A stretch of DNA of 64,000 nt. Origin: Chloroflexota bacterium. GTDB taxonomy: Bacteria; Chloroflexota; Anaerolineae; Anaerolineales; E44-bin32. Location: assembly GCA_027298025.1 (NCBI GenBank), contig JAPUGV010000222.1:5146-69145 (forward strand), written 5' to 3'. The notes under the pieces were generated by a model. It was not told where the DNA came from, made no database searches, and worked only from the letters and a program-made list of their open reading frames with translations. This document shows positions 3,727 to 62,640 of the stretch, piece after piece; within the stretch, counting starts at the first letter, position 1; each line of letters begins with the position of its first letter. The position numbers were made by a program, and so were the translations under genes.

Positions 3727-3871
3727 TTTCGGACTCTCCTAGCGATAGATGCTCTTCCTTTTGCTGTAGCGGAACCTGACCTGAGGCTCAGGGAGGCAAA
3801 CCTCCCCCCACGCCTCGAGGTATGTCTTAGAATCGCCGTACACTATCCAATCCAATCCGGAGGACTTCAGC

Positions 3872-21919: not shown

Positions 21920-23355
21920 GCCCCTCGGACCTGCTTCCGGCACTTCCCTTCATTATCGTTTCCGTGTGGGCGATTCTGCTCCTGCTGTTCGACCTATTCA
22001 TTTCCAACAAGGGCATCACCGCGATTTTGGCGGCGGCAGGCGTAGCGGCCGCACTGGTGGCGGTCATCGCGCGCCTCGGCAGCTACCAGGTGGCGTTCAA
22101 CGGCATGATCGTGGCCGACAGCTTTTCCGATTACCTGCAGATCGTGATTCTGGCCACCGCACTGCTGGGAATTGCGGTGGCGTATGACTACCTGCGCCGA
22201 ATGAACATGGAGCGTGGCGAGTACTACACGCTGATGCTATTTACCGTCTCGGGGATGCTGCTCATGAGCCTGGCGGGAGATCTGATACTCGTCTTTCTGG
22301 CCATCGAACTGCTATCCCTGCCGCTCTATGTCCTGTCGGGGTTTGCACGACCCGAGAAGAGCTCGGAAGAAGCGGCCATGAAGTACTTCATCCTGGGCGC
22401 CTTCTCATCCGCTTTTCTAGTGTACGGGATTGCGCTCATATTTGGGTCCACGGGGACCACAAACATGGCTGGTGTTGCGCAATCCATCGCCGGAGATCAG
22501 GCGGATCCGACACTGATGATCATCGCAGTACCCATGCTGTTAGTGGGTTTGGGTTTCAAGGTGGCGGCGGTTCCATTCCACATGTGGACCCCCGACGTCT
22601 ACGAGGGCGCTCCCTCGGCTGCGGTGGCATTCATGTCCGTCGGGGCGAAGGTGGCCGGTTTTGCGGCGCTGCTGCGGATTTTTGTCGCGGCGTTGCCGGA
22701 ACTGGCTCCGGCGTGGGGTCCGGTGGTAATTGCAGTTTCCGCCGCCACGATGATCTGGGGCAATGTTGCCGCGATTGCGCAATCAAACATCAAGCGCATG
22801 CTTGCGTATTCAAGCATCGCGCATGCCGGCTATATCTTGATGGCGCTAGCCGCGGCCTCGGATCCCACCGTGGCCGACAAAGCGGTGAGCGCGGCTCTGT
22901 TCTATCTCTTTGCCTATCTATTCTCAAACTTGGGAGCCTGGGCGGTGGTTCTGGCGATGGAGCGATCGAAGGGGGGCGGACTGCGGATCGAAGATTACGC
23001 CGGCCTGGGACGACGCCGTCCGGCGCTGGCGCTTGCGATGGCAATTTTCATGCTTTCGCTCATTGGCGTTCCCCCAACAGCAGGGTTCATCGGTAAATTC
23101 CTGGTGTTTGGCGTCACGATTGAAGCGGGCCTGATCGGTTTGGCGATCGTGGGTGTGGTGACAACGCTAATCTCCGCCTACTATTATCTGCGGGTGGTGG
23201 TCATGATGTACATGCGCACTGGCGAACCCGAATCTCGATCCGAGGGCTGGCTTAATCGCACCGTGGGGCTGACGGCCCTGGCAACTTTTCTTCTCGGGGT
23301 GCTCCCGGGTCCGATTCTGATCTTGGCCGGGAGTTCAGGCTTCATCACGCCCTAA
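21916..23355 (+). CDS. nuoN: NADH-quinone oxidoreductase subunit N
   Basis: 479 aa with an ATGA overlap with nuoM. Contains HMWTPDVYEGAPSAAVAFMSVGAK and is the last gene of the cluster. Confidence 0.92.
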   Translation: MSPSDLLPALPFIIVSVWAILLLLFDLFISNKGITAILAAAGVAAALVAVIARLGSYQVAFNGMIVADSFSDYLQIVILATALLGIAVAYDYLRRMNMERGEYYTLMLFTVSGMLLMSLAGDLILVFLAIELLSLPLYVLSGFARPEKSSEEAAMKYFILGAFSSAFLVYGIALIFGSTGTTNMAGVAQSIAGDQADPTLMIIAVPMLLVGLGFKVAAVPFHMWTPDVYEGAPSAAVAFMSVGAKVAGFAALLRIFVAALPELAPAWGPVVIAVSAATMIWGNVAAIAQSNIKRMLAYSSIAHAGYILMALAAASDPTVADKAVSAALFYLFAYLFSNLGAWAVVLAMERSKGGGLRIEDYAGLGRRRPALALAMAIFMLSLIGVPPTAGFIGKFLVFGVTIEAGLIGLAIVGVVTTLISAYYYLRVVVMMYMRTGEPESRSEGWLNRTVGLTALATFLLGVLPGPILILAGSSGFITP

Positions 23356-43544: not shown

Positions 43545-44273
43545 ATGGACCGCTCAGAGCAGAAACTGCCGGAGACCATCCCAACGCATGTTGCCATCAT
43601 TATGGATGGCAACGGCCGCTGGGCCCGCGATCGGCACTTGCCCAGACTAGCGGGTCACCGCGCGGGCGTTGAAAACTTACGACGTATGCTGCGCGCCGCC
43701 GAAGAATTTGGGATCCGCTACCTGACCATCTATGCGTTCTCCACTGAGAACTGGGAGCGTCCCTCGCGCGAAGTGCGTGGCTTGATGAATATCCTCGAAG
43801 ACGTGATTGATCGCGAACTCGCCGAGATGCACAAGAACGGCGTACAGCTTCGCCATATCGGACGTCTGGAAGGATTGCGCCCAGAGCTCCAGGAAAAGGT
43901 CAGACACGCAATCGAGCTCACGAAGAACAACAGCCGGCTGGTGCTGAACGTGGCCTGGAATTATGGTGGGCGAGACGAAATCATTCATGCCGTACAAGGC
44001 ATGATCCGTGACGGCGTCGATCCTGCAGATATCGACGAAGAGATGGTGCATCGATATCTGTTCACCGCTGACAGCCCCGACCCAGACCTTGTGATCCGCA
44101 CCTCCGGCGAACTGCGAGTGAGCAACTTCCTAATCTGGCAGAGCGCCTACTCAGAGTGGGTGTTTCCTGACACCTATTGGCCAGACTTCGGCCCCGAGCA
44201 ATTACGCGAAGCGCTCTGGGACTATGCACGGCGAGAACGGCGTTTCGGCACAGCAACTGCTCCGGTCGCTTGA
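43545..44273 (+). CDS. uppS: undecaprenyl (isoprenyl) diphosphate synthase
   Basis: 242 aa. Contains HVAIIMDGNGRWA, LTIYAFSTENWERP and RTSGELRVSNFLIWQSAYSE. Confidence 0.93.
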   Translation: MDRSEQKLPETIPTHVAIIMDGNGRWARDRHLPRLAGHRAGVENLRRMLRAAEEFGIRYLTIYAFSTENWERPSREVRGLMNILEDVIDRELAEMHKNGVQLRHIGRLEGLRPELQEKVRHAIELTKNNSRLVLNVAWNYGGRDEIIHAVQGMIRDGVDPADIDEEMVHRYLFTADSPDPDLVIRTSGELRVSNFLIWQSAYSEWVFPDTYWPDFGPEQLREALWDYARRERRFGTATAPVA

Positions 44274-45079
44274 TGCTGCGCCAGCGCGTCATCATTTCCA
44301 TCCTCGTCCTTCCTCTGGTGCTAGGGATGATCGCCTTAGGGGGTTGGCTGTACGTGGCCGGCGTCGCCTTGGCCCTGGCTCTGGCGGCGGCCGAATTCGG
44401 GCAGCTATTTCGCCACGCGGACCTGAGGCCCTCGATCCCGCTGCTGGTCGCGGGTGTATCTGGATTGGTCATCGCCCGCTTTCAGCTGGATGCCGAGCAC
44501 ATGGCATTGTTACTCGCCGCCATTGCTTTGCTGAGCATGATCTGGCATCTGGTGGATTATGAGCGAGGGGCGATGCGGTCCGGCACCGATTTCACCGTGA
44601 CTCTCGCCGGAATCTTCTACCTTGGCTGGATCGGTGCCTACCTGGTAGAGCTAAGGTTGCTACCTGAAGGCCAGTGGTGGGTTCTGATCGCCCTCCCGGT
44701 TGTATGGATTGCGGATACGGCGGCCTACTTCGTCGGGAAACGTTATGGCAGGCGGCCGCTATCGCCCCGCTTGAGCCCTAACAAAACGTGGGAAGGCTAC
44801 TTGTCGGGAGTGCTCACGGGGACCCTGGCCGGCTACGGTCTGGCGGCCCTTTTTGCCAGTCTGGGAGGGAATGTGGATCCCGTGGGTGGCGCCATCGTCG
44901 GCTTCCTAGTGTCAACCATCGCTCCCCTCGGGGATCTGGGTATCAGCATGATCAAGCGTGAGATGAACGCCAAGGATACCGGCACGCTGCTCTCCGCCCA
45001 CGGTGGAGCGCTGGATAGAATCGACTCCTGGCTGTGGGCGGGCGTGTTGGGGTTCTATGCTGTGGTTTGGGCGGTGTAA
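44273..45079 (+). CDS. cdsA: phosphatidate cytidylyltransferase
   Basis: ATG at 44273 sits in a TGATG overlap with uppS. Contains SPNKTWEGYLSG and ISMIKREMNAKDTGTLLSAHGGALDRIDS. Confidence 0.9.
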   Translation: MLRQRVIISILVLPLVLGMIALGGWLYVAGVALALALAAAEFGQLFRHADLRPSIPLLVAGVSGLVIARFQLDAEHMALLLAAIALLSMIWHLVDYERGAMRSGTDFTVTLAGIFYLGWIGAYLVELRLLPEGQWWVLIALPVVWIADTAAYFVGKRYGRRPLSPRLSPNKTWEGYLSGVLTGTLAGYGLAALFASLGGNVDPVGGAIVGFLVSTIAPLGDLGISMIKREMNAKDTGTLLSAHGGALDRIDSWLWAGVLGFYAVVWAV

Positions 45080-45150
45080 GCAGTGGCAGAGGCACCTTCA
45101 AAGAACCTGGTGCTTGAACTGGCCCGCGTGACGGAAGCGGCGCCAGCGTA

Positions 45151-45262
45151 GCTCCCAGGTCTGCTTGTAGGCCGAAGGTCTGCTTGTAGGCCGAAGGTCT
45201 GCTTGTAGCTCCCAGGTCTGCTTGTAGGCCGAAGGTCTGCTTGTAGGCCGAAGGTCTGCTTG
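45151..45262. repeat. tandem array of six 19-nt units in A-B-B-A-B-B order
   Basis: A = GCTCCCAGGTCTGCTTGTA (45151, 45208). B = GGCCGAAGGTCTGCTTGTA (45170, 45189, 45227, and 45246 truncated). It lies in the cdsA-rho spacer. Confidence 0.95.
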
Positions 45263-45288
45263 CGCGGCCAATAACCGAATGCTATAAT
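45260..45288 (+). promoter_or_regulatory. promoter candidate for rho (extended -10)
   Basis: TTGCGC (45260-45265), a 17-nt spacer, then TGcTATAAT (TG at 45280-45281, TATAAT at 45283-45288). This leaves a leader of about 135 nt. Confidence 0.45.
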
Positions 45289-45431
45289 CGTTGAGTCAGA
45301 GCCTTTTCGAGACATCCCCAACCACGCAATTGAGCCTGGCTGTTATCTAGCACCCACCAAGTGATTCCTATCCAGAACATTGTAGCTCGCGAAATCCGCG
45401 GATAGCCTCACTTCCCGCAGGGAGAAAACTT

Positions 45432-46712
45432 ATGAACATTGGGGAACTGGAAGCCCTATCCCTTCCCGATTTGCGCACCAAATCCAAGGAATTGGAGATT
45501 CAGGGCGCCACCCGCTTGAAGAAAGAGGATCTCATACTACGTCTCATGCAGGCCGAGGCCGAACGCAAGGGCCTTGAGCTCCGTGGCGGTGTGCTTGAGG
45601 TCATGAACGAAGGCATGGGTTTCCTGCGCGCCGAGCACTACTTGCCCGGCCCGAACGACATCTACGTTTCGCAATCGCAAATCCGCCGCTTCGGTCTCCG
45701 CACCGGGGATATGGTGATCGGCCAGATCCGGCCGCCAAAGGATACGGAGAAGTACTACGGATTGCTGCGGGTCGAGTCCATCAATGGCATGAACCCAGAT
45801 GAACTCAAGGATCGTCCCAAGTTTGAGAAGCTGACGCCGATCTTTCCGGAGGAGCGCTTCAACCTCGAGACGGATCGACACGCGCTGGCGAACCGGATGC
45901 TGAATCTGGTTGCCCCGATTGGTAAGGGGCAACGTGGTTTGATCGTTTCGCCTCCCAAGGCAGGCAAGACCACCGTGCTGAAGGGTATTGCGAATGCCAT
46001 CTCGCAGAACTACCCACAGGTGCACCTCATGGTGGCGCTGATCGGCGAGCGCCCAGAAGAGGTGACCGATATGGATCGCTCCGTGGATGCGGAGGTTATT
46101 TCCTCAACCTTCGACGACCCTGGCAGCTCGCACGTACGTGTGGCCGAAATGGCTCTCGAGCGGGCAAAGCGGCTGGTGGAGTGTGATCGTGACGTCGTGA
46201 TCCTGCTCGACTCCATCACGCGCCTGGCGCGGGCCTACAACTTGATGGTCACGCCTTCCGGCAGGACGCTGTCGGGTGGGCTGGATCCGGCTGCGCTCTA
46301 TCCGCCGAAGCGATTCTTTGGCGCGGCGCGCAACCTGGAGGAGGGTGCCTCGCTCACCATCATCGCCACCTGCCTGGTGGACACTGGCTCACGGCTGGAC
46401 GACGTGGTTTACGAGGAGTTCAAGGGCACCGGCAACATGGAGCTGCATCTCTCGCGCAAGCTGCAGGAGCGCCGTGTGTTCCCCGCATTCGACATCGATC
46501 GATCATCGACCCGACGCGAAGAGCTGCTGCTTGGGCCGGACATCACTCAGAGGGTATGGCTCATGAGGCGGATGTACTCTCAACTGCTCATGGCGCCGCC
46601 GAATGGGGCCGGTATGGAGATGGTCAGCGCTACCGAAGCCATCATCGACCGGATTCGGCGCACAGAGAACAACGTGGAGTTCCTCGAAACGCTGACCGAG
46701 GACGGTTCCTAG
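45432..46712 (+). CDS. rho: transcription termination factor Rho
   Basis: 426 aa. Contains RFGLRTGDMVIGQIRPPKDTEKYYGLLRVESING, GQRGLIVSPPKAGKTTVL and VFPAFDIDRSSTRREELL. Confidence 0.96.
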   Translation: MNIGELEALSLPDLRTKSKELEIQGATRLKKEDLILRLMQAEAERKGLELRGGVLEVMNEGMGFLRAEHYLPGPNDIYVSQSQIRRFGLRTGDMVIGQIRPPKDTEKYYGLLRVESINGMNPDELKDRPKFEKLTPIFPEERFNLETDRHALANRMLNLVAPIGKGQRGLIVSPPKAGKTTVLKGIANAISQNYPQVHLMVALIGERPEEVTDMDRSVDAEVISSTFDDPGSSHVRVAEMALERAKRLVECDRDVVILLDSITRLARAYNLMVTPSGRTLSGGLDPAALYPPKRFFGAARNLEEGASLTIIATCLVDTGSRLDDVVYEEFKGTGNMELHLSRKLQERRVFPAFDIDRSSTRREELLLGPDITQRVWLMRRMYSQLLMAPPNGAGMEMVSATEAIIDRIRRTENNVEFLETLTEDGS

Positions 46713-46881: not shown

Positions 46882-47979
46882 TTGCCCAGAACTCCTAAGG
46901 GGAAAGCCTTGAATCCCGACGATCCCTCGGATCGAAAACGAATCTCCTTGCCCCGATATGCCGAGCATGCAGGCTTCCTGCTCATCGCAGTCGTTGGGCT
47001 GCTCGTAGCACGGGCCGGGCTCGAGGCGCCACCCGAGCGCTCTGAAGCGCAGGCGGTGGTTTCCGACCCTATTGCTCTCGAACTTCCTGACTACATCCCC
47101 CCATCGGATCAATCTCTCCGTCGAACTGCCGATGTTCACACGCTGATTCCGACGCGTGACAGGCTCACGATCCTGAAATATGTCGTTCAGACGGGCGACA
47201 CGCTTTTTGGGATCTCCAACCGGTTTGGACTTCAGCCGGAGACCGTCCTTTGGGGCAATTTCGATACTTTGGAAGACAATCCGCATAGCCTGAAGCCGGG
47301 TCAGGACCTCAACATCCTGCCGGTAGACGGCACATTCTATGTGTGGAAACAGGGCGATGGGTTGATCGGCGTTGCTGACTTTTTCGGAGTGTCTCCACAG
47401 AATATTCTGGATTGGCCCGGGAATCAGCTTCCGCAGGATTTGGACTTGATTAATCCCGATATTGCACCGGGCAGCCCGATTGTGATACCGGGTGGGCAGC
47501 GAGAGACGGTAGATTGGCGAGCGCCGCGCATCACTCGCGCGAATCCGTCGTCGGCTAGGATCCTGGGCCCCGGATTTTGCGGTTCTGTTTACGATGGCCC
47601 GGTCGGGGCCGGCTTCTTCGTGTGGCCAACGCCGGGGCGCTCAATCTCAGGTTATTCGTTCAGCCTCAACATTCATCCCGCAATCGACATTGGAGGAGGC
47701 GAAGGCAACGCCATCTATGCTGTCGATGCAGGGGTGGTGGTCTACGCGGGCTGGCACAATGGAGGATACGGCAACGTGATCGTTATCGATCACGGCAATG
47801 GCTGGCAGAGTCTCTACGCTCACATGCGCAGTCTGTCCGTGGGCTGCGGCGACGGCTTGTTCCAGGGAAGCATAATTGGAGGGATGGGCAGCACCGGAAA
47901 CAGCAGCGGAACTCACTTACACTATGAGATGCAAAATGATCAATTTGGGAAGGTCAGTCCGCTCAACTTCCTTCCATAA
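46882..47979 (+). CDS. M23-family peptidoglycan endopeptidase with two LysM-like domains and an N-terminal TM (start uncertain)
   Basis: 365-aa ORF with a TTG start. The TM is AGFLLIAVVGLLVA. The LysM-like units are YVVQTGDTLFGISNRFGL and YVWKQGDGLIGVADFFGV. The M23 core is HPAIDIGGGEGNAIYAVDAGVVVYAG...GSTGNSSGTHLHYEM. Confidence 0.85.
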   Translation: MPRTPKGKALNPDDPSDRKRISLPRYAEHAGFLLIAVVGLLVARAGLEAPPERSEAQAVVSDPIALELPDYIPPSDQSLRRTADVHTLIPTRDRLTILKYVVQTGDTLFGISNRFGLQPETVLWGNFDTLEDNPHSLKPGQDLNILPVDGTFYVWKQGDGLIGVADFFGVSPQNILDWPGNQLPQDLDLINPDIAPGSPIVIPGGQRETVDWRAPRITRANPSSARILGPGFCGSVYDGPVGAGFFVWPTPGRSISGYSFSLNIHPAIDIGGGEGNAIYAVDAGVVVYAGWHNGGYGNVIVIDHGNGWQSLYAHMRSLSVGCGDGLFQGSIIGGMGSTGNSSGTHLHYEMQNDQFGKVSPLNFLP

Positions 47980-48001: not shown

Positions 48002-49081
48002 GTGAATCGGGCAAGTGCGCTATCGCTCTTCAGGTCGTCTGTGTTCTGGAGCGCGGTGCTCGCGCTGGCGGTATTGGGTGTGGCGGTCGCAGGGGTACGG
48101 GCTCGGGCAGTGACGCCCGCGAAGACGGAGGTCGAGCAGAGCCTACCGCCAACCTCCGCGCCCACCCTCCTGCAGATCGAGGACCTGCCACCTTTTGCTG
48201 AAGCACAGGAAGTAGGAATCAGCCGGCTATCGGATGTCCATACCGTCATCCCGACCCGCCCCAGACTCGGTTTGCTCAAGTACCTGGTTCAGGGGGGCGA
48301 CACATTATTTGGCATTGCGGATAAATTTGATCTGAAGCCCGAGTCTATCCTGTGGGGCAACTGGTACGAATTGGATGGAGATCCTCATTTCATTGCACCC
48401 GGACAGGATCTCATCATCCTGCCGGTCGATGGCACGCTGCACCGGTGGAGTGCGGGCGAAGGGCTTAATGGCGTAGCGACCTTCTACGGGGTCACGGCGC
48501 AAGACATCCTCGATTGGCCAGGAAACGATCTCGACCCCCGCATGGATCCGGCCAATCCGGACATAGCAGAAGGCAGTGGCCTGATTGTGCCGGGAGGGAA
48601 ACGTGAACCCCCCAGCTGGCAGCTGGTCCGCATCACGCGCTCCAATCCAGCGGTGGCTAACATTCTTGGGCCGGGGGCCTGTTCGGCGGTTTCAGACGGA
48701 CCGATTGGAGACGGCGCATTTGGTTGGCCGACACCAAGCACGGCTGTCACGGGGAATCCTTACATCCCGGGGGTGCACGAGGCGATTGATATCGGTGGCG
48801 GCGCCGGCAATGCAATATACGCATCCGACGACGGGGTCGTGGTTTATGCGGGTTGGAACGACTGGGGCTACGGCTACACCGTTGTACTCGACCACGGTAA
48901 CGGCTGGCAGTCGCTGTATGCCCACAATGGCCAGGTTAAGGTCGGCTGTGGTCAAGCGGTGTTCCAAGGCAACGTGATCGCCGGGATGGGCTGCACCGGC
49001 AGCTGCAGCGGCACCCACTTACATTTCGAGCTGCGCAGCGATGCCTTCGGCCGCGTCAACCCCCTCAATTTCTTGCCCTAG
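48002..49081 (+). CDS. M23-family peptidoglycan endopeptidase with LysM-like domains (tandem paralog)
   Basis: 359 aa with the same architecture and colinear similarity to 46882..47979. Contains YLVQGGDTLFGIADKFDL, HEAIDIGGGAGNAIYASDDGVVVYAG and GCTGSCSGTHLHFEL. Confidence 0.85.
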   Translation: MNRASALSLFRSSVFWSAVLALAVLGVAVAGVRARAVTPAKTEVEQSLPPTSAPTLLQIEDLPPFAEAQEVGISRLSDVHTVIPTRPRLGLLKYLVQGGDTLFGIADKFDLKPESILWGNWYELDGDPHFIAPGQDLIILPVDGTLHRWSAGEGLNGVATFYGVTAQDILDWPGNDLDPRMDPANPDIAEGSGLIVPGGKREPPSWQLVRITRSNPAVANILGPGACSAVSDGPIGDGAFGWPTPSTAVTGNPYIPGVHEAIDIGGGAGNAIYASDDGVVVYAGWNDWGYGYTVVLDHGNGWQSLYAHNGQVKVGCGQAVFQGNVIAGMGCTGSCSGTHLHFELRSDAFGRVNPLNFLP

Positions 49082-49198: not shown

Positions 49199-49272
49199 CG
49201 CGCCTAGTAGGATTCGAACCTACGACCTTCGACTCCGCAAGCCGGTGCTCTATCCAGCTGAGCTATAGGCGC
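49199..49272 (-). tRNA. tRNA-Arg, anticodon GCG by hand fold (no encoded CCA)
   Basis: The reverse complement reads GCGCCTA-TA-GCTC-AGCTGGATA-GAGC-A-CCGGC-TTGCGGA-GTCGA-AGGTC-GTAGG-TTCGAAT-CCTAC-TAGGCGC-G. The D-arm is Arg-like. The anticodon stem has a C27-A43 mismatch and one G-U pair. Confidence 0.8.
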
Positions 49273-49316
49273 AAGACCCCCTGGGGGGTACTCTTCAAAT
49301 CAATGGTAAATCGAGG

Positions 49317-49409
49317 CGGGGAGGGAGGGATTTGAACCCTCGATTGAGGTTTGTGCCCCAATAACCGCTTAGCAGGCGGTCCCGATCAGCCAGACTCCGG
49401 CACCTCCCC
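49317..49409 (-). tRNA. tRNA-Ser, anticodon GCU (class II, no encoded CCA)
   Basis: The reverse complement reads GGGGAGG-TG-CCGG-AGTCTGGCTGA-TCGG-G-ACCGC-CTGCTAA-GCGGT-(22-nt variable arm)-GAGGG-TTCAAAT-CCCTC-CCTCCCC-G. Confidence 0.88.
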
Positions 49410-49412
49410 ATG

Positions 49413-49502
<90 letters not shown>

Positions 49503-62527: not shown

Positions 62528-62572
62528 GGTAACACCTTTTCAGGGCACGGGCACCTCCTGTACAGCGGAAAG

Positions 62573-62640
62573 TGTTACCCATGTCATTAGACAATGTGTT
62601 ACCTATGTCCTTAGAATATTCTGTTACCTATGTCCCGGTA
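62573..62640. repeat. three direct 24-25 nt repeats with core TGTTACCYATGTC, beside the transposase remnant
   Basis: TGTTACCCATGTCATTAGA (62573), TGTTACCTATGTCCTTAGA (62598) and TGTTACCTATGTCCCGGTA (62622). An inverted GTGTTACC copy sits at 62528-62536, next to the transposase GTG. Confidence 0.85.

Follow-up and report, generated by a model that had tools for sequence, protein, structure and literature searches.

The cdsA–rho locus and its repeat array

The locus lies in the window, by which we mean the whole 64-kb stretch of Anaerolineales DNA that was analysed. Here cdsA, the last gene of the run tsf-pyrH-frr-uppS-cdsA, is followed on the same strand by rho, and a tandem array of 19-nt units stands between the two genes. 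The positions of the features are collected in Table 1. The start of cdsA was set from the 268-aa gene calls in two relatives, L086 and L088. By its Rho sequence the window belongs to the Anaerolineae (Chloroflexota). The Rho protein of the window is identical to P0001, a protein of an NCBI Chloroflexi MAG. Directly downstream of rho, two tandem paralogous LysM-M23 peptidase genes were observed (46882–47979 and 48002–49081), an arrangement that relatives share. The minus strand carries three tRNA genes at 49199–49502. An Rfam scan of the whole window returned three tRNAs only, with no match at the array or at the rho leader.

Table 1. Features of the cdsA–rho region, in coordinates of the window.
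Feature	Position	Strand	Basis
cdsA (phosphatidate cytidylyltransferase), last of tsf-pyrH-frr-uppS-cdsA	44273..45079	+	NCBIfam match
glpX deletion scar, 22-codon residual ORF GTG...TAG	45083..45151	+	tblastn of L088 GlpX; DNA alignment
19-bp minisatellite, six units	45148..45262	.	TRF; unit table across 12 loci
Units in natural register	45149–45167, 45168–45186, 45187–45205, 45206–45224, 45225–45243, 45244–45262		
−35 hexamer TTGCGC of the predicted rho promoter	45260..45265	+	position and spacing as in 55/80 Anaerolineae rho loci
Extended −10 TGcTATAAT (TGCTATAAT)	45280..45288	+	conserved in all clade members and most Anaerolineae
−10 to rho start, 143 nt, nearly all rho leader	45289..45431	+	comparison within the clade
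rho, 426 aa	45432..46712	+	NCBIfam NF006886, 620 bits

Read directly from the sequence, the array consists of six contiguous units at 45151–45262 in the order A-B-B-A-B-B, where A is GCTCCCAGGTCTGCTTGTA and B is GGCCGAAGGTCTGCTTGTA, and the sixth unit is truncated after ...GCTTG. This is exactly the arrangement given in the original prediction. The contig is metagenome-assembled, and the exact copy number of this 115-nt perfect repeat rests on the assembly and not on reads. TRF resolved the A-B-B block of 57 nt as an exact duplication (45148–45262; 2.0 copies, 100% match, score 230), and the 19-nt period gave 5.6 copies with a score of 184. As in a VNTR, tandem units of at least 10 bp are thus arranged head to tail at one locus. 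In its natural register, which is kept by all units of the window, a unit is composed of TAG, a 5-nt linker and AGGTCTGCTTG. Units 1 and 4 carry the linker CTCCC, which comes from the tail of glpX.

The array was the top-scoring tandem repeat of the window, and its score also exceeded those of all 44 arrays detected in 650 kb of related genomes (maximum 221). TRF reported further repeats in the window at 62572–62635 (24–25 nt, 2.6 copies, score 84) and at 22775–22826 (27 nt, 2.0 copies, score 65). The 13-nt core AGGTCTGCTTGTA occurs in five exact copies and a truncated sixth, all within the array, and no other copy with up to two mismatches was present in the 64 kb, which agrees with the earlier claim that nothing similar exists elsewhere in the window. 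Six core matches were reached in 0 of 100 shuffles. When the 16-mer GGTCTGCTTGTAGGCC was searched in the window with up to three mismatches, one extra match was obtained in a coding region on the minus strand (29130), which is within chance expectation. Dispersed copies resembling REP, BIME or MITE elements did not exceed chance in 80 related loci, and the tandem-core matches in metagenomes were all located upstream of rho.

Twelve exact 17-mer matches on viral contigs fell into four unrelated coding contexts and were attributed to chance. The array is not coding. Its copy number changes in steps other than multiples of three units, and on the minus strand the ORFs at 45055–45321 and 45098–45271 are stop-free artefacts of the repeat.

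The rho promoter and the origin of the unit

Upstream of rho, the arrangement TTGNNN, 17 nt, TGnTATAAT was found in 55 of 80 Anaerolineae loci (L001–L080, anchored on the −10). The spacer was 17 nt in 54 of these promoters and 18 nt in the remaining one. Their −35 region followed the consensus tgCTTGCa, in which hexamer position 4 was a C in 50 of 55 cases, and their −10 was located 131–366 nt (median 181) before the start codon. In the window, TTGCGC and TGCTATAAT are 17 nt apart, and TGCTTGCGC together with TGCTATAAT fits the class-wide arrangement exactly. Both the spacing, within the 16–18 nt of a sigma-70-type promoter, and the orthologous position upstream of rho support this assignment. 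A promoter with TTGCGC and TGcTATAAT had been proposed earlier from the window, and phylogenetic conservation now backs this candidate. It had also been proposed that the TTG of its −35 is contributed by the array, and the last repeat unit indeed ends in this TTG. A simple consensus promoter scan of 44900–45600 found nothing, because the −35 shows only 3 of 6 matches to TTGACA, and the promoter was recovered only through comparison with relatives. A sigma-54 site was considered by eye and set aside: AGGCCG-N5-CTGCT at the unit junctions reaches about 8 of 12 positions of the −24/−12 consensus and misses several conserved positions.

Transcription of rho probably starts at about 45295. The leader is 84–100% identical within the clade, compared with 53–59% at silent sites for the most distant members. 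It shows a C>G skew and contains an invariant C-rich box, CCCCAACCACGCA (45316–45328). A hairpin at 45412–45424, TTCCCGCAGGGAG, includes the Shine-Dalgarno sequence, and alignment and consensus folding showed it in L001 as well. In E. coli and B. subtilis, Rho controls its own expression through attenuation in the leader, and the leader described here is a candidate Rho-autoregulatory or translational control element.

The relatives indicate where the repeat unit came from. In L001, L088 and L100, glpX (class II fructose-1,6-bisphosphatase, 330–336 aa) lies between cdsA and rho. In relatives in which this upstream gene is intact, its stop codon TAG precedes the rho −35 TTG by 16 nt, and the 19-bp segment from the TAG to the TTG is the repeat unit itself, TAG-GCCGR-AGGTCTGCTTG. 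The glpX stop codon was found inside the first unit in L088, L099, L084 and L100, and among these an intact glpX was observed in L088, L099 and L100. The array edges are sharp on both sides in the natural register. These comparisons indicate that the array is an originally 19-bp glpX-to-(−35) junction that was amplified in tandem.

This origin bears on how the internal units should be read. Their hexamer TTGTAG is the junction TTG|TAG. It departs from the functional TTGC at hexamer position 4, where 50 of the 55 natural promoters have C; internal copies carry TTGTAG only as a duplication junction. Since the units are copies of the segment from the glpX stop to the −35, they are −35 derivatives and not an independent operator array beside the promoter. 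The linker GCTCCC of the A unit corresponds to the last glpX codons (AGC CCC TAG in L088, AGC TCC TAG in L099). Therefore, the order A-B-B-A-B-B represents the whole ancestral three-unit array, duplicated together with its left edge.

In the window, glpX itself is reduced to a scar. A tblastn search with the L088 GlpX matched residues 3–20 at 45089–45142 with 89% identity. At the DNA level, homology to glpX codons 1–20 begins at the same GTG as in L088 and runs to about 45143, is lost after codon 20, and is found again only a few bases ahead of the former stop codon. Some 930 nt of glpX are missing, and no other glpX was found in the 64-kb window. This deletion explains the unusually long cdsA–rho spacer that had been pointed out before. 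Its length of 352 nt was correct, but it is not a spacer by design, as close relatives carry an intact glpX at this place. It is made up of a 3-nt gap after the cdsA stop codon, about 64 nt of glpX scar, the array (115 nt), the promoter segment (26 nt, comprising the 17-nt spacer and the −10) and the leader segment (143 nt).

Loss of glpX occurred independently at least three times in the clade, namely in the window and L086, in L085, and in the L089 group. L085 lost the gene by an in-frame 813-nt deletion with a left junction that differs from that of the window, and no glpX remnant was detectable at the cdsA–rho locus of the L089 group. The array and the promoter were kept in every lineage that lost glpX. 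At the glpX 3′ ends of L081–L083, the C-terminal tail of GlpX is variable in length and sequence. In L083 the tail seems to cross a decayed repeat-like sequence, GGGTCTGCAAAG, about 100 nt before the array, and array turnover may have remodelled the GlpX C-terminus in this lineage.

The best species-level representative among the relatives, L001 (Rho 91% identical to that of the window), is also the nearest outgroup and does not have the 19-bp array. Its contig CAZJUE010000027 carries at 3741–3843 a 46-nt direct repeat present twice with a period of 59 (1.8 copies), which ends at TGCTATAAT and has its copies set apart by the GC hairpin ACCCCTCCGGGGC. This repeat spans the same glpX-to-(−35) junction, with TTGTGT as the −35. 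Like the array, it is a duplicated glpX-to-rho junction that includes the −35 and stands upstream of the conserved −10. Unlike the array, it has a unit length of 59 bp and 1.8 copies, and its sequence is unrelated. The L001 duplication is a separate event and is not homologous to the 19-bp array.

Copy number, conservation and RNA folding in the clade

Among the related lineages that were examined, all 11 whose Rho is at least 92% identical carried the array, with 2–9 units, and it was supported by 25 contigs from the lineages' own assemblies. Five contigs were obtained when metagenomes were scanned for two cores in tandem. All of them were rho upstream regions of relatives, which were 78–90% identical to the window at the nucleotide level and contained 2–6 units ending at the same −35. 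Further loci came from look-ups of near-identical Rho proteins. All 11 close lineages contained the core, and none of them showed an otherwise similar spacer from which the array was absent, but upstream of rho in 80 more distant species-level relatives the core was not found, and only scattered chance matches with two mismatches were seen.

Nine units were counted in L086, six in the window and in L083, five in L081 and L099, three in L082, L085 and L088, and two in L084, L100 and the L089 group; the numbers are taken from short-read metagenome assemblies and may err in detail. The window and L086 are conspecific (rho nucleotide identity 98.9%, 143-nt leader 100% identical, same deletion scar). 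The nine units of L086, compared with six in the window, show a different linker series that includes three consecutive GGCGGA units. Such a difference within one species, between homologous flanks, indicates that the locus is a genuine VNTR. The VNTR-like character, one of the possibilities raised in the original prediction, is therefore supported, both by the difference between six and nine units within the species and by the range of 2–9 units among relatives.

The behaviour of the tracts depended on their length and perfection. Long perfect tracts varied and the short imperfect 2-unit tract was stable. In the L089 group the 2-unit array was identical in 16 independent assemblies, as would be expected of such a tract. 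The base at the last linker position depends on the lineage (A, G or C) and is common to the units of one array, and the first units of L081–L083 showed 7–8 mismatches. Internal units are homogenised and edge units are degenerate, which is the pattern of concerted evolution. In the near-identical assemblies of one species (L089–L098 and L113–L118), a poly-G tract located about 10–20 nt after the cdsA stop (about 1175–1185 in L089) ranges from G7 to G9; either a length polymorphism of the homopolymer or noise in the sequencing could explain this.

Free variation in copy number, together with the 100% identity of the 57-nt duplication in the window, which must be very recent or artefactual, raises the question of whether the array beyond the −35 copy is neutral junk, with descent and homogenisation mimicking conservation, or whether the six copies are an assembler error. 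Two contigs of close relatives also break beside the array. L087 starts (position 1) at TATAAT, next to the array position, and L119 starts (position 1) inside the rho leader, just downstream of the promoter; these ends are consistent with assembly-graph breaks at a population-heterogeneous repeat. Furthermore, tandem repeats are not enriched upstream of Anaerolineae rho in general (1–2 seen in the promoter windows compared with about 0.6 expected, for a background of 0.068 arrays per kb). A tract of AACTACCA with 6.6 copies was observed in L046 at 75–127, ending about 20 nt upstream of the rho promoter −35. The neutral or artefactual reading does not agree with the recurrence of the array in all 11 clade lineages on the 25 independently assembled contigs, nor with the variant-marked nine-unit array of L086, which is resolvable by unique k-mers. 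It also fails to account for the consensus shared between species, which homogenisation cannot keep (p about 0.002 per lineage), and we regard it as very improbable.

This shared consensus was examined between the window and L081, L082, L084 and L100. The 4-fold sites of rho are 53–59% identical in these comparisons and therefore near saturation, the rho leader is 84–88% identical, and the unit consensus is identical at 17–18 of 19 positions. For a neutral identity of about 55%, a binomial estimate from the 4-fold values gave the above probability for at least 17 of 19 matches. As homogenisation within a genome cannot fix a consensus between species, at least one copy per genome appears to be under purifying selection. 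The unit is conserved also in lineages without glpX, which places the constraint on the side of the rho promoter and not on a function of the glpX 3′ end.

Within the unit, 8 of 19 columns were invariant among 15 distinct unit variants (G2, G3, G7, and TGTAG at 10–14), four more were conserved at 90% or above, and the variation was concentrated in the linker. The 14-nt part AGGTCTGCTTGTAG was nearly invariant in all non-edge units. From about −33 to −71 the DNA is the same in all arrays of at least two units, and extra units alter far-upstream DNA only, which fits with their free variation in number. We infer from the conservation of the unit between species that at least the promoter-proximal copies are constrained DNA.

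The anatomy of the array, direct repeats beside a promoter that share a conserved core, is also that of an iterated operator. According to this reading, each 19-bp unit would bind a dedicated, sequence-specific regulator of rho, whose molecules would line up head to tail or sit as dimers on the imperfectly palindromic GGTCTGC-TT-GTAGGCC, and the unit number would set the occupancy and would itself be regulated or selected. The repeats abut and overlap the −35, AGGTCTGCTTGTAG hardly changes in non-edge units while the linker varies, and each unit contains a 7-2-7 imperfect inverted repeat. The conservation of the unit, far above that of silent sites and independent of glpX, would also be explained. 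However, the copy number is not constant (2, 3, 5, 6 and 9 units, and six against nine in one species), the edge units decay, and the period is 19 bp and not about 21 bp. Neither a second site in the 64 kb nor an adjacent regulator gene was found, and TTGTAG with most of the core is explained by descent from the −35 region. The iterated operator is a possible and live rival with positive evidence limited to anatomy, and on balance we consider it unlikely.

The RNA of the array was also analysed. The plus strand folded with −68.5 kcal/mol (z = −5.1), which was matched by 0 of 200 shuffles. The minus strand folded worse than its shuffles (z = +2.9), because two of the seven pairs that GGUCUGC forms with GUAGGCC in the array RNA are G.U. 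These results, together with the start of the array exactly at the glpX stop in glpX-bearing relatives, where it is the only sequence available for a 3′ end, would fit an element acting on read-through transcripts of cdsA and glpX. The units would then form stacked hairpins or one long imperfect duplex and serve as a 3′-end stabiliser, a terminator-like insulator or an RNase III site that separates the upstream mRNA from rho. For hmw1A, an RNase III element that depends on an SSR has been documented (PMC12721329).

The finer pattern of the folding speaks against such an RNA element. The GGTCT/AGGCC hairpin proposed in the original prediction can be folded, with its stem extended to 6 pairs, but 0 pairs with compensatory changes were found, and the linker variants GGCGGA, GCTCCC and GCCGCC of recently expanded units break its arms. 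The pairing of the unit hairpin was not above shuffled controls, as 106 of 500 shuffles reached it. The region 44900–45600 contained no terminator-like site, and the hairpins are followed by UUGU only and not by a U-tract. The conservation of the unit in lineages without glpX and the negative Rfam result are further points against this reading, which we judge to be improbable.

Taken together, these data lead us to favour, with modest confidence, a locus-specific minisatellite (VNTR) that was derived from the rho promoter region, in which the proximal copies are selected and the distal copies are mostly by-products of slippage. The 19-bp segment from the glpX stop to the −35 was amplified head to tail, and the last copy is the working −35 of a promoter that is conserved across the Anaerolineae. 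Slippage or unequal recombination changes the copy number, and the fresh 3-unit (57-bp) duplication in the window and the three identical variant units in the sister strain L086 are signs of it. Later, glpX was deleted in the lineage of the window, leaving the array beside a 20-codon scar.

The promoter-proximal copies, from about −33 to −71, would be a selected DNA element of the rho promoter, as is suggested by the identity of 17–18 of 19 unit positions between species with nearly saturated silent sites, a level that lineages lacking glpX also maintain. Such an element would most likely be a contact site for RNA polymerase or for a regulator. The distal extra copies would at best tune rho transcription, and such tuning would probably be buffered by Rho autoregulation in the conserved C-rich leader. 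Against this favoured minisatellite reading stand the 19-bp period, which does not match the turn of the helix and would be an uncommon spacing for sites that are bound cooperatively, and the absence of another copy of the motif from the 64 kb, which leaves no regulon visible. The strong folding of the plus-strand RNA also counts against it, as it would suit a role on read-through transcripts.

Relation to known repeat loci and significance

MIRUs form a dispersed family with dozens of loci and units of 40–100 bp. With MIRU-VNTRs the array shares its setting as an intergenic minisatellite between co-directional genes of an operon-like run, the copy-number polymorphism between strains, and a first unit that overlaps the stop codon of the upstream gene. 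Unlike a MIRU, it is confined to a single locus and ends in the −35 of a promoter.

Iterons and iterated operators include the plasmid Rep iterons of 17–22 bp, ParR/parC, the heptads of the omega repressor and the metboxes of MetJ. The array resembles them in having direct repeats of about 19 bp at or over a promoter, with an invariant core and a variable linker. It differs from them in several respects. No gene for a cognate binding protein is present among the neighbours, and the locus is a chromosomal housekeeping locus. The contiguous 19-bp period is out of helical phase, the number of units differs within one species, and descent from the −35 segment accounts for the units.

Contingency loci offer another comparison. 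In nadA of Neisseria meningitidis a TAAA tract is located upstream of the promoter (PMC2791445), and in hmw1A of Haemophilus influenzae 7-bp repeats are located in the promoter/5′ region (PMC8262952, PMC12721329). As in these loci, the array is a head-to-tail tract immediately upstream of a promoter, its copy number is polymorphic between strains through slippage, and it occupies a position where the repeat number can alter the geometry or content of the upstream promoter DNA. The contingency-locus tracts have units of 1–7 bp, whereas the unit of the array is 19 bp, in the minisatellite range, and is a copy of the −35-bearing segment itself. The known loci control surface antigens of pathogens, whereas the array belongs to the housekeeping gene rho of free-living uncultured Chloroflexota. 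The likeness of the array to contingency loci is one of sequence and position.

No description of repeats at a rho promoter was found in the literature searched. The locus calls for no new mechanism; it is notable for the gene concerned and for a unit that copies the −35 segment. It shows how a compact junction, with a stop codon 16 nt from a −35, turned into a minisatellite. The annotation of the region is corrected, as the "long spacer" is a glpX pseudogene scar, and the array provides a strain-typing marker for this Anaerolineales clade. The analysis also defined a class-wide rho promoter and a strongly conserved leader, both candidates for a part in the autoregulation of Rho in Chloroflexota.

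Should rho transcription depend on the repeat number, the array would be a contingency-type repeat acting on a global regulator in environmental bacteria, a setting in which contingency-type loci are hardly known. A more far-reaching idea, to which we give little credence, is that the array acts as a heritable and reversible rheostat, in which 2–9 or more units would alter the binding of a regulator or of RNA polymerase and hence the dosage of Rho. If this were true, changes in Rho dosage would shift genome-wide termination, antisense transcription and the silencing of foreign genes, and a contingency locus at a housekeeping gene would maintain standing phenotypic heterogeneity in uncultured Anaerolineales.
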